Shown here: one piece after another, positions 20,174-53,558 of the stretch
Layout of the letters: the number at the start of each line of letters is the position of its first letter
Numbering within the stretch: position 1 is the first letter of the stretch
From: Escherichia phage BUCT632
Strand: one strand, 5' to 3'
Sequence record: PQ488502.1
Length of the DNA: 64,000 nt
Translations under genes and position numbers: made by a program
The notes under the pieces: model-generated
What the model saw: the letters and a program-made list of their open reading frames with translations, nothing else
Databases searched by the model: none
What the model was told of the DNA's origin: nothing

Positions 20174-20188
20174 AATTTAAAAATTCAT

Positions 20189-20217
20189 TTGCTTTCTCTC
20201 TTATTTCTTGTTATAAT
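20189..20217 (+). promoter_or_regulatory. PN25-type sigma70 promoter
   Basis: TTGCTT 20189-20194, 17-nt spacer, TATAAT 20212-20217. Confidence 0.6.
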
Positions 20218-20247
20218 ACTTGTATAAATTAACGAGAGGGAAACCAA

Positions 20248-20747: not shown

Positions 20748-20748
20748 T

Positions 20749-20825
20749 GCTTCGGTAGCTTAGCGATCTAAAGCACTCGGCTGATAACCGAGAGATCGGG
20801 GGTTTAAATCCCTCCCGGAGTACCA
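20749..20825 (+). tRNA. tRNA-Ile (anticodon GAU)
   Basis: acceptor GCTTCGG/CCGGAGT with G-U pairs, anticodon arm CTCGG-CTGATAA-CCGAG, variant T-loop TTTAAAT, CCA. Confidence 0.65.
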
Positions 20826-20931
20826 AATTTAGGAATTAAGACTATGCGTCCAGGAAAGTTTAAAAAAGCTAATTGGTCTAAAGAGTATAAAGAATACTTA
20901 CTTAGTCTAATAAAACATAATAGTTAGTTGG

Positions 20932-21007
20932 CAGAGTGGTTATGCACCTCCTTCATACGGAGCGACTACAGTGGTTCAAATCCACTACTAACTACCATTA
21001 AAATAGC
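20932..21007 (+). tRNA. tRNA with CAU anticodon (Met or Ile2)
   Basis: acceptor AGTTAGT/ACTAACT, anticodon loop TTCATAC on CTCC/GGAG stem, T-arm AGTGG-TTCAAAT-CCACT, CCA. Confidence 0.6.
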
Positions 21008-36374: not shown

Positions 36375-36559
36375 TGGAAACATTACTTCTTGTATTATTA
36401 GGAGGCTCACTCCTAATAATCCTGGGACTGATACTGATTTGCAGTCGCCTCAATACTAAGAATCTAGAGTTAACCTGTGAGAATGAAATTCTCAATAATG
36501 AACTCTTTCAATATAACATCGCAGCCCATAAACTGTTAGACAAACTGGAGAATAAATAA
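36374..36559 (+). CDS. Hypothetical small membrane protein
   Basis: 61-aa ORF, hydrophobic N-terminus. Confidence 0.35.
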   Translation: METLLLVLLGGSLLIILGLILICSRLNTKNLELTCENEILNNELFQYNIAAHKLLDKLENK

Positions 36560-37179
36560 TGACTTTTAATGCACAACAACCTATTCAAGTAGTACCGGAT
36601 CATGAACTGAACACATGGGATTATAGCTTTAAAGATTTAACTGCTACTGTACAATTTAAATCTATGAAGCTAACATTTGCACATAATGACCTTAGAGCAT
36701 GTAAAGATCTTGAGGATAAGCTCGAAGATGCTCGTAAGATTTTTGGCAAGGCTCGCATCCCAGCTGATAATCTAATTAACGCATTAATCGATGCAGGGTA
36801 CAAACTTGTGAAGACTGAGGTGAACCGCCCTAGTACTCCAGTGACTATTAGAGATCCGTGGCAGTCAGGGACAATCTCAATGCTGAATAACTCCGATAAA
36901 AGATTAATGTCGGATATGCACAATGTTCCTTGTGGGGGTGTGGTAAGTAGTACGCAGTCATATAAGTTTGTGGAAGATTACGGCCCTTCTGTACAGTTGA
37001 AACATACTCAAGAAGCTTTTGAATCTGATATGCGAAGCGTAGCACCTGCGGATGTTGGAGTTTCTAGGAGTTCTGTTTGTACTATTCATTTTAATAATCC
37101 TGGTCAACATGGAAGTTTAGAAGATGCTATTATGGAGGCGTTGGGAGCTGCCATTAATGAAGATAATAGGGGTAGCTAA
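36559..37179 (+). CDS. Hypothetical protein
   Basis: 206-aa ORF; followed by hairpin GAGCCTC-TACG-GAGGCTC. Confidence 0.5.
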   Translation: MTFNAQQPIQVVPDHELNTWDYSFKDLTATVQFKSMKLTFAHNDLRACKDLEDKLEDARKIFGKARIPADNLINALIDAGYKLVKTEVNRPSTPVTIRDPWQSGTISMLNNSDKRLMSDMHNVPCGGVVSSTQSYKFVEDYGPSVQLKHTQEAFESDMRSVAPADVGVSRSSVCTIHFNNPGQHGSLEDAIMEALGAAINEDNRGS

Positions 37180-37257
37180 TCCTCTAATACATGAGCCTCT
37201 ACGGAGGCTCTAAAATAAAAAGAAGGTCATCCAGACCTTAAAAATGAGAGATAAATA

Positions 37258-38142
37258 ATGTATAACTTTAAAGATAAACTAAGACAAAATGCTGGCAAAG
37301 GAAAGGCAAAGGAGAATAATAGTGTTCCTAATGCTAAAGTACTTCCGTTTCCTGAACTAACTCAAGAAGAAAAAGATAAACTAGCATTTATGTTCGATGC
37401 ACTTATAGGATTAAGTGGACGACTGTACTCCACCCTTAGTCTTAATGAGAAACGTCTAGTAGAGATGTTTTGTAAACGTTACCCAGTTACTTCAAAGGGC
37501 AATGCCCATAAAGAAGGTGAAAAAGCATTCACAGTCTTAAAAATCAGTGCATATGCACATCGTTTCTTAGTTTATGGGTTACAGATGGAATACTTCACCA
37601 TTCCACCATTTAAGTCATTTCACATTTTTGAAGATGAACGAATGAATATTGATGATCTCTATGGAGATACGTACAAATATTCAGGGAGTCCATTCCATGA
37701 TGCATTAAGAAGCTATCCTACTAGTTATTTACCAGTTAGGGCATCACAAGGTAAAGCTAGCATCTTTGCGGTATACTCAGGATCTAAAGCATCTGATCTA
37801 GAAACTTATATATTTAAAGAGCGTAAATCTGTGCTTCCAGATGAAGCATTATATAATAATCCATTGCTTCCAGAAAAAGAACCAGAGAAAATTGATGTAA
37901 CCCCACCAACCCCATCTGATTCTCCTTATCTGAAGTTTGAAAATCAAGTTGGATGGGTTCTAGAAATGGGTGTAGCCTCACCGCTTGCTGCAGCATTCAT
38001 CAATAGGTATCTAGAAATTCCTGACGAGTTCCACTCACGTTATAATACGAATATTCAGATTACAGATGAATTAATAGCCATTGCAAAAGGTACACCTACT
38101 GACACTGAGGCGTATCAAAAAGCATACCAAGAGTTACTATAA
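37258..38142 (+). CDS. Hypothetical protein
   Basis: 294-aa ORF with RBS GAGAGA; last plus-strand early gene before the repeat locus. Confidence 0.5.
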   Translation: MYNFKDKLRQNAGKGKAKENNSVPNAKVLPFPELTQEEKDKLAFMFDALIGLSGRLYSTLSLNEKRLVEMFCKRYPVTSKGNAHKEGEKAFTVLKISAYAHRFLVYGLQMEYFTIPPFKSFHIFEDERMNIDDLYGDTYKYSGSPFHDALRSYPTSYLPVRASQGKASIFAVYSGSKASDLETYIFKERKSVLPDEALYNNPLLPEKEPEKIDVTPPTPSDSPYLKFENQVGWVLEMGVASPLAAAFINRYLEIPDEFHSRYNTNIQITDELIAIAKGTPTDTEAYQKAYQELL

Positions 38143-38562
38143 GATCCTGCATGTCTCGGTGCACAATACCTGTACCGAGACTCAAATACAAACTCTCGTT
38201 GACAGATAGCTAAATGTATGTTATCATAACTCTATGAGTTAATAGAATTAACCATTTAGAGTTGCCACACAGAAGGTGTGGTGGTTCAGTAATTTAAAAT
38301 TACTAACTTGTAGCGGAGGATACGGAGCGACAGGACAAGTTAATAAGTAATTTAATATAAATTGCTAGAAACATCACGAGACCTTCTGGCGGGGCAAAGC
38401 TCTATATGAGAACCCTGGGGGGATCTTATATTTAAAATAAAAGTAAAACTTTTGACCACATAATTTACATTCAAGATGATACACCGGTTGCCGCTCATCT
38501 GCTAGGATGGCACAACACTTTCCTAAAAACTCCAGAGTTCTCACGAAATATCACACTTCTAG

Positions 38563-38640
38563 TGGGCGGTTCTCCTAAGTTTCTAGGAACATATACTAGG
38601 CGGTTTAATACAGGGCGGTTATTGGGAGGGCGGTTATTTC
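38563..38640. repeat. Four direct copies of GGGCGGTT spaced about 20-25 bp
   Basis: GTGGGCGGTT, TAGGCGGTT, AGGGCGGTT, AGGGCGGTT within 80 bp. Confidence 0.6.
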
Positions 38641-38679
38641 TAGAAGGCATTTTTCCAAAACACATTTCCAGAAATTACT

Positions 38680-39279
38680 GTCGGATTTGCACACTGACAT
38701 AAGTTTAAAAACTGGTCGGATTTGCACAATTGCCTAAGTTTTTAGGAACATATAATCTCCTGAAAATGGCAGCATTATTTCGGGCCGAAGGCCCATGATT
38801 GCCTGAGTTTTTAGAGCCACAGAAATTTTCACTTGTCAAGCTATTTTGCCCCATTTTGCTAATAAAATTTTACTTTATCTCACCCCAAGCCCAATTAACC
38901 CAAATCTTCTCAACTCTTCCCCAAAAACGCAGCAAATCAGGCGTTGCACGCCACCAATGCTGCTCCTCTCGCAGTTCCCCCTATTTTCTCTCGCTCTCTC
39001 ATCTTATCCCCAAACCCACACAATCACACACCCTCTCATCGAAGTCACAAAAATCTTGTCGGATTCGCACATCTTAATCCTAGAAAAACCGTGTCGGATT
39101 TGCACATACCCCACAGGATTCGAACGCAGTTCGAGATTGCTGGAGTTTTTGGGAGACAGATTCGTCACTCTCACGAATTTATAAATTTTTCGGGTCGGAT
39201 TTGCACACTACCAAAAATTGTCGGATTTGCACATACACGCCCGCACGTAACACCCGTGGAGCAATGTCGGATTTGCACA
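38680..39279. repeat. Seven direct copies of 14-bp iteron-like motif GTCGGATTTGCACA
   Basis: copies at 38680, 38715, 39058 (variant GTCGGATTCGCACA), 39093, 39193, 39219, 39266; irregular spacing. Confidence 0.8.
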
Positions 39280-39282
39280 AAA

Positions 39283-39306
39283 GCGCAGGGCAATTGCCCT
39301 GCGCTA
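39283..39306. repeat. Perfect 24-bp palindrome AGCGCAGGGCAATTGCCCTGCGCT
   Basis: 10-bp GC-rich arms around AATT centre. Confidence 0.75.
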
Positions 39307-39530
39307 AATGAGAATAAAAATAAGAATCATTCTCATTTAAAAAGCGGAATGAGAATGATAATAATTCGCATTTAGAAAGTGAAACGATTCTCACTTAGAA
39401 AGTGGAATGATTCTCATTTAAAAAACGGAATGAAAATTATTCAGGAAGTGAAACGATTCTCATTTAGAAAGTGGAATGCGAATGATAATGATTCGCATTT
39501 AAGAATGGAAGTGAGAAACACTGCTATTTA
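39307..39530. repeat. AT-rich degenerate tandem repeat array (units like GAATGATTCTCATTTAAAAA)
   Basis: at least 8 related units of about 20-25 bp with GAATGA/TCTCATTT cores. Confidence 0.65.
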
Positions 39531-39615
39531 AGTTATCCACAGACTTATCAACAGCACGATTTGACTTGACAAAATCCTAGCCATTTTGAAGCGTTATTAA
39601 CAGACTTATCCACAG
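39523..39615. promoter_or_regulatory. Two DnaA-box consensus sites (TTATCCACA)
   Basis: TTATCCACA at 39523-39531 and 39607-39615, exact matches to E. coli DnaA box consensus. Confidence 0.6.
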
Positions 39616-39960
39616 CTTATCCTACTGTATAAATATACAGTATTCCTATGCAGTGAATAATTCTAATATACCGCTAAAACGCTCTCAAAGATTGGAGGAG
39701 GCTTGAAAATTAGTTAGCCCGCTAACGATCACACAAGGCGACACGTAACACCCTAATCATTAGCAGGCTAACCATCGCGGGCGCTGTCAAATAAGAATGA
39801 TTCTTATTTGAGAATTGGGGGCACTTCCTGATAGTTGCGCCCCGTGATTATTATAGTAGTGGGCAATCGTTACGCTTTGCCCACTCCCGCCACTCATCTT
39901 GATGCCTAGACTTGCGACGGCGTACTAAAAACCGTTTGTACCAGTGATTAAACCATCGTT

Positions 39961-40164
39961 TCATAAATCTTCCTCCGGTAGTCGATGCGTGATTTTTTCC
40001 TCTTCCCCGTAGGAATCCACTAAATACTGATAATAACCATCGTGATCATAAATCACTTTATCATACTCGCCACGCTCGACCGCTTGTCTATTTTCCGGCG
40101 TATCGGGCACGTAAAAAACATCAACCATTGTGCTAGTTTTGGTCACAACAATTTTATTGCTCAT
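39961..40164 (-). CDS. Hypothetical protein
   Basis: 67-aa minus-strand ORF, first of a minus-strand block. Confidence 0.4.
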   Translation of the reverse strand: MSNKIVVTKTSTMVDVFYVPDTPENRQAVERGEYDKVIYDHDGYYQYLVDSYGEEEKITHRLPEEDL

Positions 40165-40216
40165 AATAACGCTCCGTTACTATATAATCTCGTTGCAATA
40201 CACCAAAATTATATAG

Positions 40217-40432
40217 TTACTCATATTCTAGCTCGAAAATATCCTCACCATATAATTTGATTAAATCAACTAAATAAAACGCTGTGCCAGTATTATTATT
40301 TCTCCTTATAAATCTATGATTCGCGTCTTTAAATACAGTGAATACATCACCTGTTTTACCTACTCCCCATAAATCCTGTGTTAATTTTACCCGTTTAACC
40401 TTTAGCAACATATTCCAAGTAATTTCATTCAT
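40217..40432 (-). CDS. Hypothetical protein
   Basis: 71-aa minus-strand ORF. Confidence 0.4.
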   Translation of the reverse strand: MNEITWNMLLKVKRVKLTQDLWGVGKTGDVFTVFKDANHRFIRRNNNTGTAFYLVDLIKLYGEDIFELEYE

Positions 40433-40788
40433 TGCGCCACCTTTCGAAACGCTGTTTCAATACTATCCGCAGTGGATTGAATATATGCGCCTTTCATTAT
40501 CAGGCGCTCGGTGCATACTTTGCGGAAAATATTAATAAAATCATCTTCATTTTCTGCAATTAATGCTTCCCCCATAACTTGAACGTCACAAGATGCAAAG
40601 GTCAAAAATTGAAACGCTAGTTCACGGGCAACGACCGCATTGATTTTATAATGCGCCTTGCCCTCATAAATATTAATAACGCCCTTATAAGCTGGGGAAA
40701 GCTGATTTAAGTAGTTTGCTAGTAATGCCGGACGGCAATTAGCAACAAAACGATTACCTTCATAAATAACCATTTGACAACCTCCCAA
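40429..40788 (-). CDS. Hypothetical protein
   Basis: 119-aa minus-strand ORF overlapping downstream gene by 4 nt. Confidence 0.4.
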   Translation of the reverse strand: MGGCQMVIYEGNRFVANCRPALLANYLNQLSPAYKGVINIYEGKAHYKINAVVARELAFQFLTFASCDVQVMGEALIAENEDDFINIFRKVCTERLIMKGAYIQSTADSIETAFRKVAQ

Positions 40789-40896
40789 TTATATAGCCGG
40801 ATAATAACATAAAGATCCCCAATGAAAGGGGATCATTCTTAAATAGGGTGGCTGTAAAACCGCCAACCATTGCAAGGATAATAACAATAACGCTTT

Positions 40897-41109
40897 TCAT
40901 AGCACCCCACGAAACGCAGCGTAAAAGGTGGCAAAATGTTTAACCGTTTCAGCGATCACGTTGCCGCGCTTATCAAATTTCTTTTCTGTAACACGAAAAG
41001 CGTTTTTATTACGTGCTACATATTCGATTTTACAATCTTCCCGCTCGAACGTGTTAACATCCACCAGCTTAAATCCTTTCGAACGTGCAAGAGAAACGTT
41101 ACGGATCAT
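40897..41109 (-). CDS. Hypothetical protein
   Basis: 70-aa minus-strand ORF. Confidence 0.4.
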   Translation of the reverse strand: MIRNVSLARSKGFKLVDVNTFEREDCKIEYVARNKNAFRVTEKKFDKRGNVIAETVKHFATFYAAFRGVL

Positions 41110-41307
41110 TTTTATTCTCCTTTACTAGTCATGCAGCCCAGCAGATAAGAAAACGCAGCAATGCCAGCGCCAATAATAACGGCGTGAACGCCAAAAGCTA
41201 TTGCAAATAACGATAAAATAGCGCCCAAGATACCCGCCAGAATAGCTCGAAAAATAATCATTTTTATTCTCCTAGTCAGTGGGGGATATAATATCCCCCG
41301 TTACTAA

Positions 41308-41538
41308 TTACATTAAAACAATTTTTGCGGCTTGTTTTTTAGTGCAATGTTCAGCTTTCAGGGTATCCAGCAAAAAGCCCGCCGTTTGCTGATCGATTTT
41401 ATCGGCGTTGTATAGTTCTTGGATGGTGTTATAAGTTTTAGCAATGCCGAACTCCTGCACCATTTCATGAATAACAACGCGATTGGACACCCAACCTTGA
41501 GCGGTAAACAGATGAGTAGCAGAAGAGTAAGCAACCAT
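41308..41538 (-). CDS. Hypothetical protein
   Basis: 76-aa minus-strand ORF. Confidence 0.4.
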   Translation of the reverse strand: MVAYSSATHLFTAQGWVSNRVVIHEMVQEFGIAKTYNTIQELYNADKIDQQTAGFLLDTLKAEHCTKKQAAKIVLM

Positions 41539-41642
41539 TTTAAGCCTCCAAATTTTTGGGAAATTTTCAATCCACCGTTTTGGTGTAAAGGCATTATAAC
41601 AAAAAAGGCCACCATAAAAGGCGACCTTTACAAAACTTTACA

Positions 41643-42137
41643 TTAGACTACTTGTAAGGATTCAACATTGAAACATCGTTTCAATTCGTCATGCAAAACA
41701 GCGTATTCCTCCCATCGGGTACTATCAGGAATATAAACAAGCTGTTTTAATCGATTTGCGTATATTACCGCTTTGTTATCGACTATCTCGACGCCGCCAT
41801 ATTTAATAATTAATTTCATGACGGAATTAATAGGATCGCCGCCGTTTACATATGTGCCGGATTTACTTAGCTGATAATGATAAAGGCTTGCATATACGTT
41901 TTCATTTTCATACCATTCGCCAGTTTCTTCGTCTTCATAGCCATCACTACCAAAACGAGAAGCATTATCAACAGCCATTTCCTGAGCAAAAGCGTCCAGA
42001 TCCGTACCAGCAGGAACAAAGTATTCCTCGGTGTTCCCTTCCCCGCAATAGCCAGTATGACAATCGACTAAAATGATCATATCATGTTTAGCCGTGCTTA
42101 CTTCCCCTAGCGAGAAGCCGTATTTTTCCTCAGCCAT
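41643..42137 (-). CDS. Hypothetical acidic protein
   Basis: 164-aa minus-strand ORF. Confidence 0.5.
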   Translation of the reverse strand: MAEEKYGFSLGEVSTAKHDMIILVDCHTGYCGEGNTEEYFVPAGTDLDAFAQEMAVDNASRFGSDGYEDEETGEWYENENVYASLYHYQLSKSGTYVNGGDPINSVMKLIIKYGGVEIVDNKAVIYANRLKQLVYIPDSTRWEEYAVLHDELKRCFNVESLQVV

Positions 42138-42202
42138 TTATTAGCCTCCTATTAATTAACAAGGGAATAGTAAAGTGGGGAAATAATCCCCACTAAATAT
42201 TA

Positions 42203-43213
42203 TTACTCGATTTCGGTGCTAGTGGTAAAAGTAGAAATATCAATACCTTTCACCATTTCATCAATCATTTCAGCGATGTTAAAACTTTGCACCATTTCCA
42301 GCATTGCCGCTTCCATAGCCGCCCCCGCTACCGCTTTCGCCTTTTGGTTACTCGGTGCGTACTGGTCAACCGCCACACTCAGCAGGTTAGCAATCACTAC
42401 TCGACCGATCGGCGTATCAATATAACCTTTAATCATAAACGGTGCTTTTTTAGCCGCTACTTTCGTAATTTGAGTCAGTGCAATTTTACCCGCTTCCAGT
42501 TTTGCAGCATTTACAACAGCGGATTTATTAGCGGCAACGATGTTAGCAATCTTGGTCATGGTGTTTTTTCCTTTGTTTTCAGTAGTTTGAGTATTAACGC
42601 TTTGAGTGTTAGAATTTACAGCATGGTTTTCTACGCTGTCAATAATCTGATCTTCATCTTTCCAGAAAGAAAAACCAGCGCTTTCTATATCCCCATCATA
42701 AATATACGGGTATAACTCCCGTGGTAACAAAAAATTACCATCGCCATCAAAAGCCATTATACCAGTATATTGAGATCCGTCGTTATCCGGCTTATGCCAT
42801 CCAGCGGGTAAATACTTCCAGATAACATCTAAAAATCCCTCAATGCTAGAAAGTCCATTTATCAGATCAAGCCCAATAAGCTCGAAACCATTTATATTAA
42901 ATGATTGACGGCCTGAATTGCTATGATACGCAACAATATTATTACCCTGCGTAATAATAAAATCGGCATCCGGCCCCGCTCCCCTGCCTGTAAAGATATG
43001 GCAATCCCGATTATATAAAACTAGCGTTGCCCCTTGTTTATATAACGGCAAAAAACCATCCATATCATAAGCGTCATAATCATCAAAAAAGTTTTGATGA
43101 ATAGTCTCAATCTTGTTAATAAAATGTTTAATGCTGGTTGACTTGCTACCGTCCAGCAGGTTGCGCAATGCACCCTTTAATACGGTGGCATTATCAGGTT
43201 TATACAGCCTCAT
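42203..43213 (-). CDS. Hypothetical protein
   Basis: 336-aa minus-strand ORF; start preceded (on minus strand) by AGGAGGCCGAACAA RBS. Confidence 0.55.
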   Translation of the reverse strand: MRLYKPDNATVLKGALRNLLDGSKSTSIKHFINKIETIHQNFFDDYDAYDMDGFLPLYKQGATLVLYNRDCHIFTGRGAGPDADFIITQGNNIVAYHSNSGRQSFNINGFELIGLDLINGLSSIEGFLDVIWKYLPAGWHKPDNDGSQYTGIMAFDGDGNFLLPRELYPYIYDGDIESAGFSFWKDEDQIIDSVENHAVNSNTQSVNTQTTENKGKNTMTKIANIVAANKSAVVNAAKLEAGKIALTQITKVAAKKAPFMIKGYIDTPIGRVVIANLLSVAVDQYAPSNQKAKAVAGAAMEAAMLEMVQSFNIAEMIDEMVKGIDISTFTTSTEIE

Positions 43214-43505
43214 TTGTTCGGCCTCCTCGTTAATCGGTGAGTGAATGATATAGATATTTGTTCACTAGGGGCAAGAAAAAAGAAAATGTTTTTTATTCCT
43301 TGCCTAGCGCCTATTTTTATGCTAACCGCGCAGCGGTGTAATAAAGAGCAAAAAACGGCGAAGCCACCAGGCCGCAGCATTGAGGCTTTACTTTACTATT
43401 ACCTTGCAGCGTTTAGCTCGTTAGAATGCGATTTAGGCCGCTTAAAATTGATTGCAGTTGTTAACACTACCTTTTTACCCTGTATATTTATACAGTGGAA
43501 TAACC

Positions 43506-43872
43506 TGTGGATAAGTCTGTGCAAAAGTCCTTATATCGCCGCCTATCGTGTCAAGTTATTTCGTGCTGTGGATAACGTTGTGGATAACTTAAATGATAGT
43601 GGTTCTCACTTAGGCCGATAGTTTCTTATAGTTATTATTTCTCATTAATTTATAAGTATATTATATATTATGAAATAGTTAGTTGGCTAATGAGATTTTT
43701 CGTGATTAATAGTCTGCTAATAGTTTACTCTGTTACAGTCCACCAGCATGATTATCATCCTAGCAATTATTATCCTGCTATCTTTCCGATACATACTAGC
43801 AAACAAAAGTCAATTAATTTATTTCATAAAATAAGTAGTTATCCACTGGAAAATAAAAGTCAAGTGGATAAC
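43506..43872. promoter_or_regulatory. Cluster of five DnaA-box matches in divergent intergenic region
   Basis: TGTGGATAA at 43506-43514, 43567-43575, 43579-43587; TTATCCAC at 43839-43846; GTGGATAAC at 43864-43872. Confidence 0.55.
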
Positions 43873-44751
43873 TAGGAAAATTTCATTTTTGCTTTTGGGG
43901 ATAAGTTATCAACAAGGCTAGAATGCGCCTAAAACGCCCTAGAACGCGATGAAGTTTTTAGCCATCCCATCATAAGGGGATAGGCCGTTTATCGCTGCCA
44001 CGAGCTTTTTGGATTTTGTCAAGTAGGGCAAAGCAAATATAAATGAAAAAATTACTTGCCTATCTGCTTTATTTTGTGGTATTCGCGCGCCCGTTTCTTT
44101 TAATTTTAGGCCATCGCCGCACGGTGTCCGGTGAGTTTTGTCTTTACGTTTCTTTACAAAAATAAGGTTGCGCCATTTTCGGGAATCCCCTATTATTTAT
44201 CACGTAGGGCGGCAATGACGAACTACACGGCGGGAAGTTTACCGCCACGCTCTTTAAAAATTGGGTACATCTTAAAGCCTATCGGCGGTAAACTTATACA
44301 TTATAAGGAATCGACGATATGAAACAAACGCTTTTGATCACTGGCAAGCCTATTAAGGCACTAGATAGCAAAACAAAAAATTTGTTGACAGTAGCTCAAA
44401 GATCAGTAAAATATAGATTCACGCAGTACAAGAAAGGCCGCCAGCAAGGTTTAGAAATGATCTGGCGCAATATTATGATTGACCTGAAGGAAAATCATAA
44501 AAAATTGCAAAAAATTGTTTGACACCCTAGCCGATAGGCTTTAAGATGTACTCAGTTCGATAAGAGCGATAACTTGATAAAATTTGACGGTCGGTGCTTA
44601 CCATAATGCATCCCGCCCCCTAACGGGATATAGCGGCCTACGTGGAGTTCTTTAAATTGATTATAGCGGCGGGAGGATTGTTACTTATTACCTGCTAGTA
44701 TTTTCTAGTAGGTAATGCGGAACAATCCCCAAATAACTAGGAGTTTATACT

Positions 44752-45003
44752 ATGCAAAACGTTATTACCGCGCCGAAAGTTGGTCAATCCGTCTTCATTC
44801 CTTTCGTTACTAAAACGGATGAATTAACCGGAAAAGCCGAACGTATTAAAGGTGCGGCGCTTATGCCGTTCGATACAATCGACGCGGTATATGCTGAAAA
44901 TGAACGCAGTAACAACGGCAAGCCGATTTATAACGTTCGCGTTAAATCCGGCGACGTTGTAAAGGTTGTTCAACGCAACGAAAAATGGGAAGCTGTATTG
45001 TAA
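44752..45003 (+). CDS. Hypothetical protein
   Basis: 83-aa ORF with AGGAGTTTATACT-ATG initiation context shared by neighbouring genes. Confidence 0.45.
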   Translation: MQNVITAPKVGQSVFIPFVTKTDELTGKAERIKGAALMPFDTIDAVYAENERSNNGKPIYNVRVKSGDVVKVVQRNEKWEAVL

Positions 45004-45104
45004 TGTAGTGTTAACTTTATATTCCCCTGAAATATGGGGAATATATGGATTAACATTTAGTTAATCATTAAATCCCTTAAATTAAACTAATAGGAGTTTT
45101 TACC

Positions 45105-45512
45105 ATGACTAACGCAAAAACCGCAAAATTCGCATGGAACGAAGAAAACACTCAGAAAGCTGTTTCTATGTATCAGCAGTTAATCAACGAAAACGGTTTA
45201 GATTTCGCAAATAGCGACGGTTTAAAAGAGATTGCAAAAGCAGTAGGCGCGGCTTCTCCCGTATCCGTTCGGTCAAAATTGACCAGTGCAAAAGCCTATC
45301 AAAAAAGCGATAAGCCGCGTAAAGTTGGCGGCGGTAGCTCTGTGCGTAAAGCTCACTATGTGCGCGTTATCGCTAAACATGCTATCGATTCCGGCATTAT
45401 CAAAGACGCCGATGATCTGGCAAGTCTGGAAAGTGCAAAACTTGAAACGCTGGACGCAGTAGCGCAATTGTTAGGCGTTGCTGATGAAGTAAAACAAGCC
45501 GCAGGCGAATAA
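45105..45512 (+). CDS. Hypothetical protein
   Basis: 135-aa ORF with shared AGGAGTTTTTACC-ATG context. Confidence 0.5.
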   Translation: MTNAKTAKFAWNEENTQKAVSMYQQLINENGLDFANSDGLKEIAKAVGAASPVSVRSKLTSAKAYQKSDKPRKVGGGSSVRKAHYVRVIAKHAIDSGIIKDADDLASLESAKLETLDAVAQLLGVADEVKQAAGE

Positions 45513-45513
45513 T

Positions 45514-45557
45514 AGTTATACCTTGCCCCCTTCTAGTGAGGGGGCAATAATATAACT
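45514..45557. other. Long palindromic hairpin (no U-tract) after gene
   Basis: AGTTATACCTTGCCCCC...GGGGGCAATAATATAACT. Confidence 0.5.
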
Positions 45558-45602
45558 GTTTAGCGATAGTTATTTTCTTCCCTTAAATCAGGAGTTTTAA
45601 AA

Positions 45603-45800
45603 ATGATTTTCTTCCCTACTGAATCTTTGATTCTAGGCTTGTTTATTATGGCGGCCTCATTATTGTTCGCTTATTTTCAAAATGATTTAGATTCGTATTA
45701 TTTTAAACGTAAATCTAAGTTAGCAAAACGTTTAGGTCTGCTTTGTTTTATCGCTGCCGTTGCTTGTGGTGTTAGTTCTAGCCTAGTGCCTTTAAATTAA
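45603..45800 (+). CDS. Hypothetical small membrane protein
   Basis: 65-aa ORF, two hydrophobic segments. Confidence 0.35.
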   Translation: MIFFPTESLILGLFIMAASLLFAYFQNDLDSYYFKRKSKLAKRLGLLCFIAAVACGVSSSLVPLN

Positions 45801-45890
45801 TGTTGCAAATTATAACGCCTATTATTTGAGGCGTTATATTTGGCAATATTGCCATTATTAATCTAATCCCTTTAATGGAGTTTTATTACT

Positions 45891-47561
45891 ATGATTATTT
45901 CCGCAGAAAAACAAACCGTTATCCTGAAAATGGCCGCTGACTTTAATTTCTATGGTAAACGTCTGCGCGCTACTAAACTGGAGGTCTGCGACGATATATC
46001 AAAAGCAGTCTACGATACAACGAAACATTCTACCGCCATTTGTGATTGGCTGGAAGCAAACAAACCAGCTAAACCGAAAGCGGCAAAAGTAGCAAAAGCC
46101 ATTAAAAACGACGAGCGCCCCGAAGCGGCTGGGATTGTTTCTAGTACGGTTGAGCAATGGGAAGTAAAACAGGGTAAACGTTTTATTATTACGTCGATTC
46201 AGAATAATACTTTCCCGCATAAAAACTTTTTAGCAAGTCTGGAAAAATTCGCTGAATATATCGGTGCCGATTTGCTTGTTTCTAAGTATATTTATAATAA
46301 AAACGGCTTCCAAAATGGAGAAGGTGCAGACGGAATCAAATATGATTCTGCGTTTGATAAATATATTTGCAGCAAAAACGTGTTTTTAAATAACCGCCGT
46401 TTTGCTTTCATGGCTGAAATTAATGTTTTGCCTACCGCAGATTATCCGCTTTCTGGATTCGCAGAAACTGCAACGGCTTTAAATATTGAAGGTCTGGCAA
46501 TTGGTCACGCTAAAATTACCGCTGAAAGCGTACCAGCTTTAAAAGGTGAAGTAGTGCGCCGTATGTACTCAACCGGAACGGCAACCCTCAAAAACTACAT
46601 TCAGCAGAAAGCAGGACAAAAGGCCGAGGCGCTGCATAACTTCGGTGCGCTGATTGTTGAGTTCGACGAGGACGGGGAATTTTTTGTTCGCCAGCTTGAA
46701 ACGATGGACGAAAGCGGGGTATTTTATGATCTGAATGTGTGCGCTACTCCTGCCGGATGCTATGAGACATCGGGGCATGTTTTAGGCTTGCAGTATGGTG
46801 ATATTCATGCAGAAAAACTAGATGAGGCTTGCGCTCAAGCGTCTTGGGGTCATGGTGATACTTATGGGCTTGTGGATATTCTCAAACCGAAATATCAGTT
46901 TGTACATGATGTGCATGATTTTACATCCCGCAATCATCATAACCGCGCTTCTGGTGTATTCCTAGCGAAACAGTACGCCGCCGGACGTGATAAGGTTATT
47001 GATGATCTTATCGATACGGGGCGCGTGCTGGAATCAATGGAGCGTGATTTTTCTCAAACAATCATTGTTGAATCAAATCACGATTTGGCGTTATCCCGTT
47101 GGCTGGATGATCGAAATGCTAACATCAAAGACGATCCAGCAAACGCCGAACTATATCACAGCCTAAACGCTGCAATCTATGCGGCTATTGCAAAGCAGGA
47201 CGATACTTTCAACGTGCTAGATTATGCCTTGCGTAAGGTAGCAGGTTGTGAATTTAACGCCATTTTCCTGACCACTGACCAATCATTTAAAATTGCAGGC
47301 ATTGAATGCGGCGTACACGGTCACAACGGCATTAACGGCAGCCGTGGCAACCCGAAACAATTTAAGAAATTGGGCAAGTTAAACACGGGGCATACGCATA
47401 CCGCCAGCATTTACGGTGGCGTTTATACCGCTGGCGTTGCTGGTAGTCTGGATATGGGTTACAACGTTGGCGCGTCAAGCTGGACGCAAACGCATTTAAT
47501 TACATACGCCAACGGCCAGCGCACTTTGATTGACTTTAAAAACGGCAAGTTTTTCGCATAA
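45891..47561 (+). CDS. A1: A1-like pre-early protein with calcineurin-like metallophosphoesterase motifs
   Basis: 556 aa (length matches recalled T5 A1); motifs GDIHAEKLD, HDVHDF, GHTHTASIY. Confidence 0.6.
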   Translation: MIISAEKQTVILKMAADFNFYGKRLRATKLEVCDDISKAVYDTTKHSTAICDWLEANKPAKPKAAKVAKAIKNDERPEAAGIVSSTVEQWEVKQGKRFIITSIQNNTFPHKNFLASLEKFAEYIGADLLVSKYIYNKNGFQNGEGADGIKYDSAFDKYICSKNVFLNNRRFAFMAEINVLPTADYPLSGFAETATALNIEGLAIGHAKITAESVPALKGEVVRRMYSTGTATLKNYIQQKAGQKAEALHNFGALIVEFDEDGEFFVRQLETMDESGVFYDLNVCATPAGCYETSGHVLGLQYGDIHAEKLDEACAQASWGHGDTYGLVDILKPKYQFVHDVHDFTSRNHHNRASGVFLAKQYAAGRDKVIDDLIDTGRVLESMERDFSQTIIVESNHDLALSRWLDDRNANIKDDPANAELYHSLNAAIYAAIAKQDDTFNVLDYALRKVAGCEFNAIFLTTDQSFKIAGIECGVHGHNGINGSRGNPKQFKKLGKLNTGHTHTASIYGGVYTAGVAGSLDMGYNVGASSWTQTHLITYANGQRTLIDFKNGKFFA

Positions 47562-47568
47562 TTAAATT

Positions 47569-47594
47569 TATAAGCTGGAAATATTTCCAGCTTA
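47569..47594. other. Perfect palindromic hairpin after A1-like gene
   Basis: ATAAGCTGGAAATATTTCCAGCTTAT. Confidence 0.5.
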
Positions 47595-47626
47595 TACCCT
47601 TATTAAATTAATTGGAGTTTATAACT

Positions 47627-48019
47627 ATGAAAAAGCAAAATATCCCATTCGATCGCGCTCAATCCTCAATCGTTCTGGTTTATTCTAATGGTGAACGTTA
47701 CCACGTCGAGGCGGGGCACGTTGTTGATGATTTAATCGAGTTTAACGAGGCGTTACAGATCACGACTTTCGCCTATACGCAAGGCCGCGCAAGTAGTCAC
47801 ATCAAGGCCGCTGGCGTTTATGTTGACACGGTGAAACAAGAAACGATTATCATCGACGCCGTAAAATCCGGCCTAGCCTTTGCAGTTGTCGCGCCTTGCC
47901 CCGCTTGCCTAGATGATCAGCTAACGAGTGCAAAGGTATATACCTGCGCGGGTATTCGTTCCAGTGTATCAGGTGAGGATGTTAGTTTTATCGCTGATGC
48001 GTTGGCTTATGGTCTTTAA
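47627..48019 (+). CDS. A2: A2-like pre-early protein (by position and size)
   Basis: 130-aa ORF immediately downstream of A1-like gene; ATG 47627 after GGAG. Confidence 0.45.
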   Translation: MKKQNIPFDRAQSSIVLVYSNGERYHVEAGHVVDDLIEFNEALQITTFAYTQGRASSHIKAAGVYVDTVKQETIIIDAVKSGLAFAVVAPCPACLDDQLTSAKVYTCAGIRSSVSGEDVSFIADALAYGL

Positions 48020-48098
48020 TAGTTAATTTATTATTACCCGCTTATAAATAGCGGGTAATGCTGAATTAATCTAATCCCTTAAATGGAGAACGTAACAA

Positions 48099-48833
48099 AT
48101 GAATAAAGCTATTATGAATATTTCCCGCAGCTTCCCGCATATTTCCCGCGTCATGATTTGGGATTTAGACGGCACTATCATTAATTCTTTCCATCGTGTA
48201 GCGCCTTGCTTTGATAGTGAGGGCAATTTAGATTTAAATAAGTATAAAAATGAAGCGTGTAAACATCATTTAATAATGCAGGATTCTTTATTGCCATTGG
48301 TTGAATACATGCGCCAATGTATGAATGACGCAAATACTTTAAATATTATTTGTACCGCTCGACTAATGAGCAAGTCGGACTATTATTATTTGCGTAAACA
48401 AGGTCTGCGCGGTCGTGGTAATAGTAATATCCGCGTGTTTTCCCGCGATACACTGCATAAATATTTTAAAGCTGATAAGGTTAGCGAGATATACCACAGC
48501 AAAGACGCAGTTTATAAATCTTATTATTTTGAATTATTTAAACAGCTATATCCGAACGCTGATTTTACGATGATTGATGATCATAAAGGCGTATTATCAG
48601 CGGCGGCATCATACGGATTTAAAACGCTGGACGCGCAAGCCGTTAACGATATTCTATCAATCGGGGTGGCATTGATAGGTGAAACCTTTATCGATGAATC
48701 GCTCGATGATGATAATGATTATCAGTTCCTAGCCGATCGTTTGAAATTATGTTGGGAAGGTATGACCGAGGAAGAACGCGCAGAATATAGTTGCAGCCCG
48801 CAACAATACATGGAGAAATTAAAAGTTGCATAA
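48099..48833 (+). CDS. dmp: HAD-family 5'-deoxynucleotidase (dmp-like)
   Basis: 244 aa; HAD motif I MIWDLDGTII near N-terminus; size and position consistent with recalled T5 dmp. Confidence 0.5.
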   Translation: MNKAIMNISRSFPHISRVMIWDLDGTIINSFHRVAPCFDSEGNLDLNKYKNEACKHHLIMQDSLLPLVEYMRQCMNDANTLNIICTARLMSKSDYYYLRKQGLRGRGNSNIRVFSRDTLHKYFKADKVSEIYHSKDAVYKSYYFELFKQLYPNADFTMIDDHKGVLSAAASYGFKTLDAQAVNDILSIGVALIGETFIDESLDDDNDYQFLADRLKLCWEGMTEEERAEYSCSPQQYMEKLKVA

Positions 48834-48847
48834 TAATTAAAGTTGAA

Positions 48848-48884
48848 ATAGTCACGGTGTGTAACGATAACATGCCGTGACTAT
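48848..48884. other. Hairpin with 10-bp perfect stem after dmp-like gene
   Basis: ATAGTCACGG...CCGTGACTAT. Confidence 0.5.
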
Positions 48885-48984
48885 TAGCTTGCTAAGTACC
48901 GGGCGGTAATGAGACTTATTCTCATCTCGGGGGGCACTGGACACACCTCCATGTGTAATCTTATGAAATTTGGCAAAAGTCAAA

Positions 48985-49230
48985 TTAGCGCATAGAAGGG
49001 TCATCAAACCTGTGTTCTGGTCTGAACTCACGGAATCTCTTCCGCGACGCCCGAGATCCATCCGACCACTCCCGATCAAACTCCGCACGTTTCTCGTCAA
49101 ACTTCCGCTCCCTTTCCGCAATCTCCCGCGCCACTTCCGCAATATATTTACGATGCTTGTTGATTGCCGCAGTCGTCCCGAAAACTCCCGCGAGTACCCC
49201 TATAATAAAAGCAATTACAATACTAAACAT
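48985..49230 (-). CDS. Hypothetical membrane-anchored protein
   Basis: 81-aa minus-strand ORF, N-terminal TM then Arg/Glu-rich tail; two shorter membrane ORFs follow upstream on the same strand. Confidence 0.35.
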   Translation of the reverse strand: MFSIVIAFIIGVLAGVFGTTAAINKHRKYIAEVAREIAERERKFDEKRAEFDREWSDGSRASRKRFREFRPEHRFDDPSMR

Positions 49231-49639
49231 TATTTATATTCCCGTAGCTTACGTTCAATACGAGCTAAGTGGTTATCCAAGACACATTGCCCTAGAATTA
49301 CCACAACTAATAAAACAATAATTATTACCTCCATTAAAGCCACCCCGCCATAGCTGCTAACCAAAAGCCTACGAAGATTAGGAATAATACAAAACCAAAT
49401 CCGTAAATATTAATCCACGCTTCATACACTTCTCCGCGTCTGCTCTTTCTTTTGTTTGGCATATCTTTCACTCTCCAATAAATATGGTATTTTAAAGTAT
49501 TTTATAGTTTGTACATAACCAACCATGCTCGTGACTTCCTAGAAGGACTTCTACTTTTCTCACATAGTGGTTTCTGCTAGTACACCATCCAAGAAATAAA
49601 AAATTTAGTTTACTTGGATGTCTTTTTGCTTTATACTAA

Positions 49640-49906
49640 TTACAGGTAGTTAGATTGCTCTAGTTTAAATTTACAATCACCATATTTAAGGTCAAACTGA
49701 CTGAGATCCCACCACCCAAACTTAGTACGGAGCTGTACTACTGGGAATCGATCTCCCTTAATACGAACTTTTTGAACCTTGAGGCCGTAATGTTCTTCTC
49801 CCGCACCACCAAAAGATTTTACAAATCCAGTACAAAATGGTTTGGGAGCAGGTGCACAACCAGATAACATAACTGCGGCAACTAGTGCAATCACAAACTT
49901 TTTCAT
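49640..49906 (-). CDS. llp: Lipoprotein, Llp-like (candidate receptor-blocking superinfection exclusion protein)
   Basis: signal peptide with lipobox LSGC; small; divergent from adjacent receptor-binding protein gene as recalled for T5 llp-oad. Confidence 0.5.
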   Translation of the reverse strand: MKKFVIALVAAVMLSGCAPAPKPFCTGFVKSFGGAGEEHYGLKVQKVRIKGDRFPVVQLRTKFGWWDLSQFDLKYGDCKFKLEQSNYL

Positions 49907-49991
49907 ATTTATCTCTCCATTTCTAATTTATGAGTATATTATAGCAAAATAGAGAGATGAAAGCAAATACATTTTTATAATAGGAGATTAT

Positions 49992-51749
49992 ATGGGTTTT
50001 TTCGCTGGAAAATATAGCGATGGTAAGACCGTACTATCTTTAAATACTGAATCTGGTGGTGACATTAATCGTCACTATAGTCCAAATGCCAATAGTATTT
50101 TTCATAGTGATATGCCATTTGTCCTAGTTGATGGTACTTATGAGTCTGGGTTAGGTGATGCCGGTAATGGGTTTTTTGTATGTCAGATGCCCTCTGACAT
50201 AATAAATATTAAATCCAATGACCCCGGTAGAGTTATATTAACTGCTATTGAGATTAATGGTACTCACAGAGCTTTTCTTAATGGTACTCAGAGTAAGGTG
50301 GGTCAAACTATAGTTGCCACTCAAGCAGATCCTTTTAGATCTTTTGCTAGTGTTTCCCAGACTAGTGGATTTGCATTTGGTAATAGCCTGGCATCTGGTA
50401 CATATAACTATAATCCATCTATAGGACATGAAGAATCTATTTCTAGGAATGGTACAGGGGGTACTACCTTACATAGTACGTATCATGGTATAGTTAGGCC
50501 AGGTGCAGGAGCTCCAGTAGGTATTACTGTTGCAGAAGCTTTTGCACAGTTAGGATTCCCTACTAATAGTAGTACAGTACCTATAGATAGTAATAACCAA
50601 TATTACTGGGACCCAGGATGGATGTCTCCTTTAGGATCAGCACACAGAGGGCACGATTGGTTTTATGTTTGTAACTCTAACATACGTGGGTATGGTGGGG
50701 TAAGACAAGGTCTTCCTGGTAATGTAAATACTATGTATCATGATGGGGGTAATAGATTTGTTTGTAGAGGTTCTACAACTAATTTAGCTAATCAATCTGG
50801 TAACGCTACAATATTACAGGATTGGTATAACATAACCCCTACTAAAGTTATTTGGTACGTTTTGAATTTAAGATACTCAAATGGTAATATGGGTATTTCT
50901 GGTAATCCTTTTACTGGCTCAGATATTCTTATCTCTCCCTCTAATTTTACTATAAAAGGGGTTAGTTTACCGAATACTGGGTATAAGTTTATCAACCAAA
51001 ATGCTTTTGGTAACTTAGGTTATAGACCAGATATGGAATATATTGGAAATAACGCAGCGTACACCGGGGCCTTTGGGGATACCACTGCAAGATGTGAACT
51101 TGTAGGTTCTAGTAACGGGAGTTTATGGTCTCCTGTAGACTATGGAGGGGCTAAGTCTCAAATTAGTATTTACAAATTCGGAGCTGGTAAGCAATGGTAT
51201 GTAAATTCTAATGATAATACTATCGGTAATGAACACGGGGTTGTTTGGGGGCCTTCAGCAGTTCCACTACGACTTTTTAGCGGAAATGTTGGTAGTTCTT
51301 ACATGGGGGATGATATTACTCCCAGCTATCCAGGAACTGGAGATAGATACGTTGGTTTATCAACTATTGGGCTAGGTATACCGGGTGGCAATGCTACTGT
51401 AATTCTTACCACTGAAGTTATATCAGGTAATCTTAACTGTGCAGGTGTTCCTGCTAATACATGGAATAACGGTGTGTTTCAAGTGCAGGGAAGAAGAGCA
51501 TATAGTTATAGTAATGGAGACGCGATATTCCACCAGATTTTAACACTACCAGTAGGGTATTTAGTACCTTTTCATACTACATCTGCTTTTAGATACACAC
51601 CTAACAATGCCCTAAGTAGAAATAGTTTTATATACACTGCTAAAAATCTGGGGAACGGAAATGTAGAGTTAGGGGTAGTTATGCACGTAAGTTTAGGTAG
51701 TGCAGTTTTTCTACCTAGATTAAGAGTAACAGTTCAACGCCTTACCTAA
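49992..51749 (+). CDS. Receptor-binding tail protein (pb5/Oad-like candidate)
   Basis: 585-aa Gly/Asn/Ser/Thr-rich ORF between Llp-like gene and terminase genes. Confidence 0.45.
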
Positions 51750-51759
51750 AGGAGGAAAT

Positions 51760-52242
51760 ATGGCAAATGATGTATTAGTACCAGATCTTATGTCCCCTGA
51801 AGGGATGGATGTGATTGAAGCTTATTTACAGTGCGGTAGCGATGTGCCTTCTGCCGCACGTAGTCTTGGAATGTCCGAAATTGCTTTCCGAGATATTATG
51901 AATCGTAGTGAAGTTAAGAATTACTTAAACGATATTTTTATGGAAAGTGGTTTCCGTAACAGGGATCGTTTATTTGGTGTTCTGGATGAAGTTATTAAGC
52001 GTAAGCTGGAGGAACTGGAAGAAACTGGCATGGGTTCTGACCAAGATATTATGGATATTCTCTGGAAAGCACATAAAATGAAAATGGAAGAAATGAAAAT
52101 GATGGTAGAATTGGAGAAAGTGAAGGCAGCAGCCCGTACTCCAGCTAACCAGACCAATATCCAGAATAATATTATTGCTGGAGCTGGGGATCAAAACTAC
52201 ATGGACTTAATTACTTCCCTAGCTACTGGAGGTAAGAAGTAA
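51760..52242 (+). CDS. Terminase small subunit (candidate)
   Basis: 160-aa ORF immediately upstream of and abutting large terminase; GGAGG RBS. Confidence 0.45.
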
Positions 52243-53558
52243 TGGAAGTATCAAGACCCTACGTTAATACGGTAGATGTTATTGATTTCGGGATAGATAA
52301 ACGTTTCTTTCGTCTACCTGTTTCAGGAATACTAGCACAAGAAGGTATTACACCTAATGGTCCTCAAATAGCGATTATCAATGCGCTAGAAGACCCTAGA
52401 CATCGTTTTGTAACGGCGTGTGTATCACGCCGTGTGGGCAAGTCCTTCATCGCGTATACTCTTGGGTTCCTAAAATTGCTGGAACCTAATGTGAAGGTGT
52501 TGGTAGTTGCTCCTAACTACTCACTGGCCAACATCGGGTGGTCTCAGATTCGTGGTCTTATTAAAAAGTACGGCCTACAAACCGAACGTGAGAACGCTAA
52601 AGATAAAGAGATTGAGCTAGCAAACGGCTCACTGTTTAAACTAGCTTCTGCGGCGCAGGCTGACTCCGCAGTTGGACGTTCATATGACTTTATCATCTTC
52701 GATGAGGCGGCAATTTCCGACGTTGGTGGTGATGCCTTTAGAGTTCAGTTGCGTCCTACTCTAGATAAGCCTAATTCTAAGGCTCTATTTATCTCTACTC
52801 CTCGTGGGGGTAACTGGTTTAAAGAGTTTTATGCCTATGGATTTGATGATACATTACCTAACTGGGTATCTATTCATGGTACATATCGTGATAACCCACG
52901 TGCTGATCTGAATGACATCGAAGAAGCACGTCGTACAGTTAGTAAAAACTACTTCCGTCAGGAATATGAGGCTGACTTCTCTGTATTCGAAGGTCAGATC
53001 TTTGATACCTTTAATGCTATCGATCATGTTAAAGATCTCAAAGGTATGCGTCACTTCTTTAAAGATGATGACGCATTCGAAACGTTGCTTGGTATTGACG
53101 TTGGTTATCGTGATCCTACAGCAGTTCTTACTATTAAGTACCACTATGATACAGATACCTACTATGTATTAGAAGAGTACCAGCAGGCAGAGAAAACTAC
53201 AGCGCAACATGCTGCGTATATTCAGCACTGTATAGATCGTTATAAAGTTGATCGTATTTTTGTTGACTCTGCAGCAGCTCAGTTCCGTCAGGACTTAGCT
53301 TATGAACATGAAATTGCATCAGCTCCAGCTAAAAAATCTGTCCTAGATGGTCTAGCATGTTTACAGGCACTATTCCAACAGGGAAAGATTATTGTAGACG
53401 CTTCATGCTCTTCATTAATCCATGCATTGCAGAACTACAAGTGGGATTTCCAAGAAGGTGAAGAGAAATTATCACGTGAAAAACCACGTCATGATGCTAA
53501 CTCTCACCTCTGTGATGCGCTGCGCTATGGAATTTACTCTATTTCCCGTGGTAAATAA
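52242..53558 (+). CDS. Terminase large subunit
   Basis: 438 aa; Walker A-like VSRRVGKSF and DE motif FIIFDEAA; position before portal/capsid genes. Confidence 0.7.
   Translation: MEVSRPYVNTVDVIDFGIDKRFFRLPVSGILAQEGITPNGPQIAIINALEDPRHRFVTACVSRRVGKSFIAYTLGFLKLLEPNVKVLVVAPNYSLANIGWSQIRGLIKKYGLQTERENAKDKEIELANGSLFKLASAAQADSAVGRSYDFIIFDEAAISDVGGDAFRVQLRPTLDKPNSKALFISTPRGGNWFKEFYAYGFDDTLPNWVSIHGTYRDNPRADLNDIEEARRTVSKNYFRQEYEADFSVFEGQIFDTFNAIDHVKDLKGMRHFFKDDDAFETLLGIDVGYRDPTAVLTIKYHYDTDTYYVLEEYQQAEKTTAQHAAYIQHCIDRYKVDRIFVDSAAAQFRQDLAYEHEIASAPAKKSVLDGLACLQALFQQGKIIVDASCSSLIHALQNYKWDFQEGEEKLSREKPRHDANSHLCDALRYGIYSISRGK

Follow-up and report, generated by a model that had tools for sequence, protein, structure and literature searches.

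In phage T5 (NC_005859), the long terminal repeats occupy positions 1 to 10219 and 111532 to 121750. The pre-early (first-step-transfer) module was located at both virion ends in BF23 by PhageTerm, in Kenya-K37 by PhageTerm, double coverage, and PFGE, and in phiR2-01 by double coverage, and experimental evidence for A1/A2-dependent two-step DNA transfer comes from T5 and BF23 only. According to Davison, the same injection-stop (iss) architecture of an inverted repeat with DnaA boxes is found in all T5-like phages, the order dmp, A1, A2 counted from the outer repeat end is used as a criterion, and GenBank holds records in which these three genes were misplaced into the late region, assemblers being prone to mishandle the repeats. 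The module, the iss architecture, and the collapse artifact are already on record for T5, BF23, and many relatives; the locus reported here adds no new biology and its value is practical.

The analyzed DNA of Escherichia phage BUCT632 (PQ488502.1) was a stretch of 64 kb, referred to as the window and written in reverse relative to the T5 reference. The phage is T5-like and belongs to Tequintavirus, family Demerecviridae, and the best-matching phage records were 89 to 97% identical to the window. An exact 61-mer search of IMG/VR, JGI metagenomes, and GTDB genomes gave no match, and neither did megablast against complete E. coli genomes and PLSDB plasmids or look-ups of the exact RBP, A1, and dmp proteins. 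The region from 38.1 to 49.6 kb comprises the T5 pre-early module with the iss and the flanks. A sequence-only reading had placed A1-like, A2-like, and dmp-like genes at 38150 to 49600, between a tRNA/early region and a late region with llp, receptor-binding, and terminase genes. Comparison with T5 proteins by tblastn and with PHROGs recovered all three genes and bore out their position. The interval itself covers the repeat but overshoots it by about 660 nt per side, where it takes in an early-side spacer (38143 to 38813) and late-side DNA (48944 to 49639).

Upstream of the module were found 22 tRNA genes (9080 to 20997), 14 copies of an early-promoter family (3.8 to 32.8 kb), and homologs of T5.019 and T5.018 (36559 to 38142). 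The T5.018 homolog (37258 to 38142, plus strand; 88% amino acid identity over 294 aa by tblastn) corresponds to the first early-region gene beside the left terminal repeat of T5, located at 10936 to 11820 just inside the boundary. It is followed by the unique noncoding spacer between early region and repeat, 38143 to 38813, colinear with T5 10220 to 10935 and containing four GGCGGTT motifs (38566 to 38640), two TGTCGGATTTGCACA repeats, and the hairpin GGGCCGAAGGCCC at 38782 to 38794.

Gene content and order of the module matched the left terminal repeat of T5 with 86 to 100% amino acid identity by tblastn, and the genes dmp, A1, and A2 were present in this order from the outer repeat end with 93 to 99% identity. 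The pre-early operon toward the outer end (44215 to 48833, plus strand; 86 to 99% identity to T5) consists of the T5.009, T5.008, and T5.007 homologs, A2 (45105 to 45512; 135 aa, 99.3% identity), the homolog of the membrane protein T5.005 (45603 to 45800), A1 (45891 to 47561; 556 aa, 95.9%), the T5.002 homolog (47630 to 48019), and dmp (48099 to 48833; 244 aa, 93.4%), all on the plus strand and assigned by tblastn. PHROGs names in this operon include DNA transfer protein and DNA binding protein. The 135-aa ORF between A1 and dmp (47612 to 48019) was considered as A2 and rejected, as tblastn identified it as the T5.002 homolog and A2 sits upstream of A1. The divergent operon toward the iss (39961 to 43213, minus strand; tblastn and PHROGs) carries homologs of T5.011, T5.012, T5.013, T5.014, T5.015, and T5.017, among them T5.011 (42203 to 43213, with a DUF7566 match), T5.014 (40897 to 41109, 100% identity), and T5.017 (39961 to 40164), each found by tblastn on the minus strand. 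An additional ORF of 164 aa (41643 to 42137, minus strand) is absent from T5 and common to BF23, MM-1, L6jm, SIA3lw, and K37.

The proteins A1, A2, and dmp matched no Pfam domain, and a PDB sequence search with A1 and dmp returned no match. Within residues 300 to 505, A1 contains the motifs GDIH (304), HDVHD (340), SNHD, and GHTH (500), and a 2026 preprint describes A1 as a predicted metallo-phosphatase; dmp has the motif DLDGT at residue 22 and matches PHROG 415, named "polynucleotide kinase". Calcineurin-like metallophosphoesterases are marked by the metal-binding motifs DxH ... D ... NH[DE] ... H ... GHxH, and HAD-superfamily phosphatases by an N-terminal motif I, DxDx[TV]. The fold labels phosphoesterase for A1 and HAD-type for dmp are putative, drawn from motifs and PHROG names only.

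The untranslated iss region (38885 to 39980) is equivalent to T5 9140 to 10149 by approximate mapping. It includes five TGTCGGATTTGCACA repeats, a 23-nt periodic repeat/palindrome array (39315 to 39521), and the palindrome AGCGCAGGGCAA/TTGCCCTGCGCT, to which the major nick of T5 maps (about 39283); the sequence at 39263 to 39302 was 100% conserved across five relatives. One arm of a 132-nt inverted repeat, IRD'-spacer-IRC' (39509 to 39640, plus strand), holds two pairs of DnaA-type boxes (39533 to 39553 and 39594 to 39614), and the other arm, IRC-spacer-IRD (43480 to 43611, minus strand), holds the other two pairs (43506 to 43526 and 43567 to 43587). The eight boxes form four pairs with 3 bp between partners. 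In the whole 64-kb window, four paired-box matches were found versus 0.14 expected by chance, all of them in the inverted repeat. The iss architecture of T5 type is complete in the window.

On the other side, the late-side unique DNA (48944 to 49639, minus strand) encodes small membrane proteins identified by tblastn as homologs of T5.162 (48985 to 49230) and T5.159 (49337 to 49462), both on the minus strand; in T5, these genes lie at 110826 to 111490, directly before the right repeat. The late region starts with llp, the receptor-binding protein, TerS, and TerL (49640 to 53558; tblastn and PHROGs). TerS (51760 to 52242, plus strand) is 100% and TerL (52242 to 53558, plus strand) 99.8% identical to T5 at the amino acid level, which leads us to expect the same enzyme for end formation.

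The sequence-only reading had interpreted this layout as a collapsed terminal repeat, which was supported by colinearity of the window with both inner junctions of T5 around one repeat copy. T5 9370 to 12988, leading from the left repeat into early DNA, aligned without a break to window 39681 to 36081, and T5 111245 to 112894, leading from late DNA into the right repeat, aligned equally unbroken to window 49230 to 47597. In T5, about 101 kb separates these two junctions; there and in relatives with resolved ends, the unique DNA has one flank at each of its ends, with about 100 kb between them. In vB_EcoS_MM-1 (PV577657), in which both repeats are annotated, the late flank of the window adjoins the right repeat and the early flank adjoins the left one. 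The segment 38814 to 48943 matched end-located repeats in records of at least 116 kb (L6jm 108066 to 118452, TUMS_E3 1 to 10021, and NBSal005 1 to 10823). No second copy or long direct repeat was found within the 64-kb window, the only repeats being the early-promoter family and those of the iss. The segment of 10,130 bp is very probably a collapsed long direct terminal repeat, present twice in virion DNA. A collapse would leave the sequence unscarred, so it is from homology that we infer two virion copies for this particular phage.

In comparison to T5, the window shares the order dmp, T5.002, A1, T5.005, A2, T5.007 to T5.009, a divergent promoter region, T5.011 to T5.017, and iss, with 86 to 100% protein and 81 to 89% DNA identity, as well as the inverted repeat and its DnaA-type box pairs, the flanking genes T5.018 on one side and T5.162 on the other, and a nearly identical right-end boundary sequence. 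In contrast to T5, it has one repeat copy, lacks the HNH endonuclease gene hegG, T5.003, and T5.016, contains the extra 164-aa ORF, and shows another sequence variant in the final ~100 nt on the dmp side. BF23 (OR083247) has its boundaries at positions equivalent to 38814 and 48943 and shares the 164-aa ORF, but its 9,743-bp repeats, determined by PhageTerm, are both placed at the ends of a linear genome of 114,544 bp. Among relatives whose records include both repeats, L6jm (MN956514) and MM-1 are the closest, with 92.5 to 92.8% DNA identity over the repeat at 95 to 98% coverage and, for MM-1, 95.7% identity over the late flank. Their boundaries map to 38814 and 48942, but these linear records of 118 kb contain the repeat twice (10,386 and 10,407 bp). 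Deposits of T5-like phages with a single copy, either collapsed or re-originated, for example, Stokescottia (OR896820), Lindwurm (OK143207), SUT_E1520 (OQ885479), and ECOP18 (MT080103), are 102 to 113 kb long and show an identical layout of early, pre-early, and llp/RBP/terminase regions around one internal copy; they do not differ in kind from the window, to which their DNA identity is 89 to 93%. This single-copy layout, with A1 present once, is seen in around 80% of public T5-like records.

The predicted repeat, present once in the window at 38814 to 48943, was delimited by the mapped boundaries of relatives. In five of six references (T5, BF23, MM-1, SIA3lw, and L6jm), the repeat boundaries mapped to 38814 and 48942/48943, including the PhageTerm ends of BF23 (38814 and 48943) and the self-identity of L6jm (1 to 10386 equal to 108067 to 118452). 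The physical ends had been proposed near 38.1 to 39.9 kb and about 49.5 kb; the former range includes the mapped end at 38814, while the latter missed the mapped end at 48943, which lies about 550 bp short of it. Among five relatives, the sequence is most strongly conserved at the boundary, with 95 to 98% at 38783 to 38862 versus 46 to 57% at 38183 to 38422. The cut-site sequences read ...TTTTTA/GAGCCACAG... and ...CACTGGACA/CACCTCC... (cuts marked by slashes), and no motif shared between the two was seen when they were compared by eye. The TGTCGGATTTGCACA repeats span the boundary at 38814, and together with the near-invariant island of ~80 nt at this position, they could represent a putative cis site for right-end formation by the T5-type terminase.

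The most probable of the alternatives, though unlikely, is that the repeat is real and its ends are offset from those of T5 and BF23, either to the positions of Kenya-K37 or by tens to hundreds of bases. The annotated DTR of Kenya-K37 maps to 38843 and 48927, 16 to 29 bp inside the others, the dmp-proximal ~100 nt of the window are closer to the variant common to K37 and L6jm than to T5, and the repeat lengths of the relatives vary from 9,743 to 10,407 bp. Against an offset stand the concurrence of the five references, the fact that L6jm, despite having the dmp-end variant of the window, still maps to 38814 and 48942/48943, and the nearly invariant sequence of about 40 nt on either side of 38814. 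Given the Kenya-K37 boundaries, the termini may deviate from the mapped positions by some tens of bases.

The absence of any assembler artifact is less probable still. The window would then show a true single-copy junction, as present in replicative concatemers or in circular DNA inside the cell, or a one-copy record deposited deliberately with an arbitrary start. DTR phages are believed to form concatemers during replication, in which each junction has a single repeat that is duplicated when the ends are formed, and many depositors give one copy on purpose, in line with the share of records that hold a single A1 gene. Phage genomes are, however, normally sequenced from virion DNA, and such a junction or deposit looks the same as a collapsed assembly from sequence and leads to the same conclusion on the virion ends. 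Highly improbable is a module truly internal in virion DNA with no long terminal repeat, for example, under headful, circularly permuted packaging, which the scarless nature of a collapse would permit and which, if true, would run counter to the rule by which a terminal pre-early segment is injected first in T5-like phages, but the near identity of the terminase to that of T5 (99.8 to 100%), the conserved boundary sequences and iss, and the need of two-step transfer for the module at the entering end speak against it, and no relative with determined ends has the module internal in linear virion DNA, the observation named beforehand as refuting a collapse. The milder reading of the conserved boundary as a putative cis site is more plausible than such an internal module.

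Under the collapsed-repeat interpretation, virion DNA would carry the 10.1-kb segment 38814 to 48943 twice, one copy per end. Because the copies would be identical, the assembler would merge them and join the ends of the unique DNA via a single copy, and the pre-early module would thus appear between the early genes and llp/RBP/terminase. The virion order in the orientation of the window would be the terminal repeat (38814 to 48943), the late region from 48944, the remainder of the genome, the early region up to 38813, and the terminal repeat again. Following what is established for T5 on two-step transfer and on the roles of the genes, the repeat would constitute the first-step-transfer DNA, whose dmp-side end (48943) would enter the cell first. 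The two divergent pre-early operons would be transcribed by the host RNA polymerase, transfer would pause at the untranslated iss at about 38.9 to 40.0 kb, and A1 and A2 would then be required for the remaining DNA to enter.

For the use of the record, this means that it probably falls short of the virion genome by about 10.1 kb and has an arbitrarily placed origin. For annotation and comparison, the origin should therefore be moved to 38814 or 48943 and the repeat entered twice, and conclusions drawn from gene order, for example, "pre-early genes in the late region", should be disregarded.

The receptor-related genes next to the late flank distinguish the window from T5, as llp and the receptor-binding protein are of the BF23/L6jm type and not of the FhuA-binding pb5 type. 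The llp-type lipoprotein gene (49640 to 49906, minus strand) has a lipobox, and its product is 100% identical in amino acid sequence to the receptor-blocking protein of BF23. The receptor-binding protein of 585 aa (49992 to 51749, plus strand) is only 68% identical to that of BF23, 30% identical to pb5 of T5, and 97% identical to that of L6jm.

The window was identified as a T5-like phage segment that runs opposite to the T5 reference (NC_005859). In that reference, the annotated repeat copies span 1-10219 and 111532-121750; T5.018 is close by on the inner side of the left one, and T5.159 to T5.162 and llp lie directly ahead of the right one. With blastn, T5 9370-12988 matched window 39681-36081, colinear across one inner junction, and T5 111245-112894 matched window 49230-47597, colinear across the other, so that junctions separated by about 101 kb in the DNA of T5 virions border one repeat copy here. 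A second repeat copy was absent within the 64-kb window. This single-copy layout is exactly the product expected if two identical end copies were merged, which would leave no scar. By sequence, a collapsed repeat would be indistinguishable from a genuine concatemer junction or from a record deposited with one copy on purpose. The collapsed terminal repeat, already proposed in the sequence-only reading, is supported by the two inner junctions bordering one copy, and the layout would be an artefact of representation already described for this known module.

Repeat ends of six phages, annotated or self-derived, were mapped onto the window. The end on the injection stop signal (iss) side fell at 38814 for T5, BF23 (OR083247; 9,743-bp repeats, PhageTerm), Escherichia phage vB_EcoS_MM-1 (PV577657), SIA3lw, and Salmonella phage L6jm (MN956514; 1-10386 identical to 108067-118452), and at 38843 for Kenya-K37 (PhageTerm, coverage, and PFGE). 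The dmp-side end fell at 48943 for T5 and BF23, 48942 for SIA3lw and L6jm, and 48927 for Kenya-K37; the MM-1 alignment ended 104 nt short on this side. The terminal repeat is predicted at 38814-48943 (10,130 bp). At 38814, the alignment was near-invariant (…GATTGCCTGAGTTTTTA/GAGCCACAGAAATTTTCAC…, slash at the boundary), and conservation among T5, BF23, MM-1, L6jm, and Kenya-K37 was maximal there, with 95-98% at 38783-38862 versus 46-57% at 38183-38422. The non-coding stretch 38783-38862, around the predicted right-end cut site, was the best-conserved part of the spacer and is a candidate for a cis-acting site at which ends are formed. At the dmp-side end, a window variant common to Kenya-K37 and L6jm was followed by a return to the consensus (…CACTGGACA/CACC…). 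This would place the virion ends more precisely, near 38,814 and 48,943. Of the ends first placed at 38.1-39.9 kb and 49.5 kb, the former range includes 38814 and the latter lies about 550 bp beyond 48943; likewise, the module interval 38150-49600 includes the repeat and extends about 660 nt past it in both directions.

A1 matches were found at 545 places in 463 phage records; therefore, at most 82 records carry two copies. Among 60 records sampled at even spacing, two-copy records were mostly 117-125 kb long with A1 1.4-4.7 kb from the record start (length exceptions DT571/2, 108,418 bp, and SA001, 110,965 bp), and single-copy records were mostly 102-115 kb with A1 at any position. The module and its single-copy representation artefact are already known: the Kenya study described a circular assembly in which the two repeats overlapped as a single segment of high coverage, the 112,795-bp assembly of phiR2-01 became a 122,696-bp genome after double coverage was used, and Davison regarded GenBank entries placing dmp, A1, and A2 "in the late region" as assembly problems and put them aside. 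The T5-like record of Klebsiella phage KPP2018 (OQ031075.1/NC_110934.1), unusually long at 137,988 bp, has an internal repeat-like segment at 40437-50545 with two matching places reported and looks like a mis-assembly or partial duplication.

Homologues were named by tblastn with annotated T5 proteins (amino acid identities to T5 in brackets), and PHROGs names were consistent. Both confirmed that the pre-early genes lie between the early and late regions, with three corrections to the sequence-only reading. Downstream of 22 tRNA genes (9080-20997) came homologues of T5.019 and T5.018 (36559-38142; 72% and 88%), T5.017 to T5.011 (39961-43213, minus strand; 65-100%), T5.009, T5.008, and T5.007 (44215-45003; 88-94%), A2 (45105-45512; 99.3%), T5.005 (45603-45800; 95%), A1 (45891-47561; 95.9%), T5.002 (47630-48019; 86%), dmp (48099-48833; 93.4%), T5.162 (48985-49230, minus strand; 85%), and T5.159 (49337-49462, minus strand; 76%), then TerS (51760-52242; 100%) and TerL (52242-53558; 99.8%). 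The open reading frame (ORF) between A1 and dmp was rejected as A2, which is the ORF upstream of A1. The labels phosphoesterase (A1) and HAD (dmp) agree with motifs and literature; Pfam and PDB sequence searches gave no match backing either. T5 lacks a 164-aa pre-early ORF (41643-42137, minus strand; PHROG 6741, unknown function) that is 91-97% conserved in BF23, MM-1, L6jm, SIA3lw, and Kenya-K37, whereas T5 hegG (HNH endonuclease), T5.003, and T5.016 are not in the window's repeat. A weak tblastn match to the homing endonuclease hegG (29%, E = 3e-7) points to an early-region HNH endonuclease gene at 2462-2821. The classic strong early promoters of T5 are represented at 3799-32816 by at least 14 near-identical sigma-70 promoters (TTGCT…TATAAT…ATAAATTGATGAG) that precede early genes and tRNA clusters.

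The internal anatomy fits that of first-step-transfer DNA in T5. An untranslated region at about 38.9-40.0 kb is the counterpart of the annotated T5 iss and contains a 23-nt periodic repeat/palindrome array (39315-39521). Seven TGTCGGATTTGCACA repeats lie at 38679-39286, two outside 38814 and five inside, and the array therefore straddles the predicted virion right end; it probably corresponds to the T5 DRD repeats and Repeat Region 3, which extends beyond the left terminal repeat into unique DNA (Davison). The perfect palindrome AGCGCAGGGCAA/TTGCCCTGCGCT (39263-39305) was 100% conserved in five relatives, and the annotated T5 major single-chain interruption (9748/9749) mapped within it, at 39283. 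The two arms of a 132-nt inverted repeat, at 39509-39640 and 43480-43611, together bear eight DnaA-type boxes in four pairs with 3-bp spacers (0.14 pairs expected by chance in 64 kb), with no further such pairs elsewhere in the 64-kb window; this arrangement is reported by Davison to be general in T5-like phages. Four closely spaced GGCGGTT motifs (38566-38640) were present in the unique spacer adjoining the repeat.

By analogy with established T5 knowledge, the dmp-adjacent end would enter the cell first, two divergent pre-early operons would be transcribed by host RNA polymerase, and transfer would stop at the iss, the second step needing A1 and A2. In T5, degradation of host DNA requires A1, and A1 suffices for it. 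A second copy of the repeat is believed to arise at packaging, by extension synthesis from staggered nicks. The 99.8-100% identity of the terminase subunits to those of T5 argues for the same end-forming chemistry.

Next to the repeat, the llp-type lipoprotein (49640-49906) was 100% identical to the BF23 receptor-blocking protein, and the 585-aa receptor-binding protein (49992-51749) was 97% identical to that of L6jm, 68% to that of BF23, and only 30% to T5 pb5. These identities suggest a BtuB-type rather than FhuA-type receptor.

With megablast, 512 phage records matched the window over 36-52 kb at 80-95% identity; Tequintavirus of Salmonella and Escherichia made up most of them, and the phage collection (August 2025 release) contained no near-identical record. 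The best matches per segment reached 92-93% identity in the repeat, 96-97% in early DNA, and about 96% in late DNA, each segment having a different best relative; the phage is probably a mosaic and possibly a new species-level Tequintavirus.
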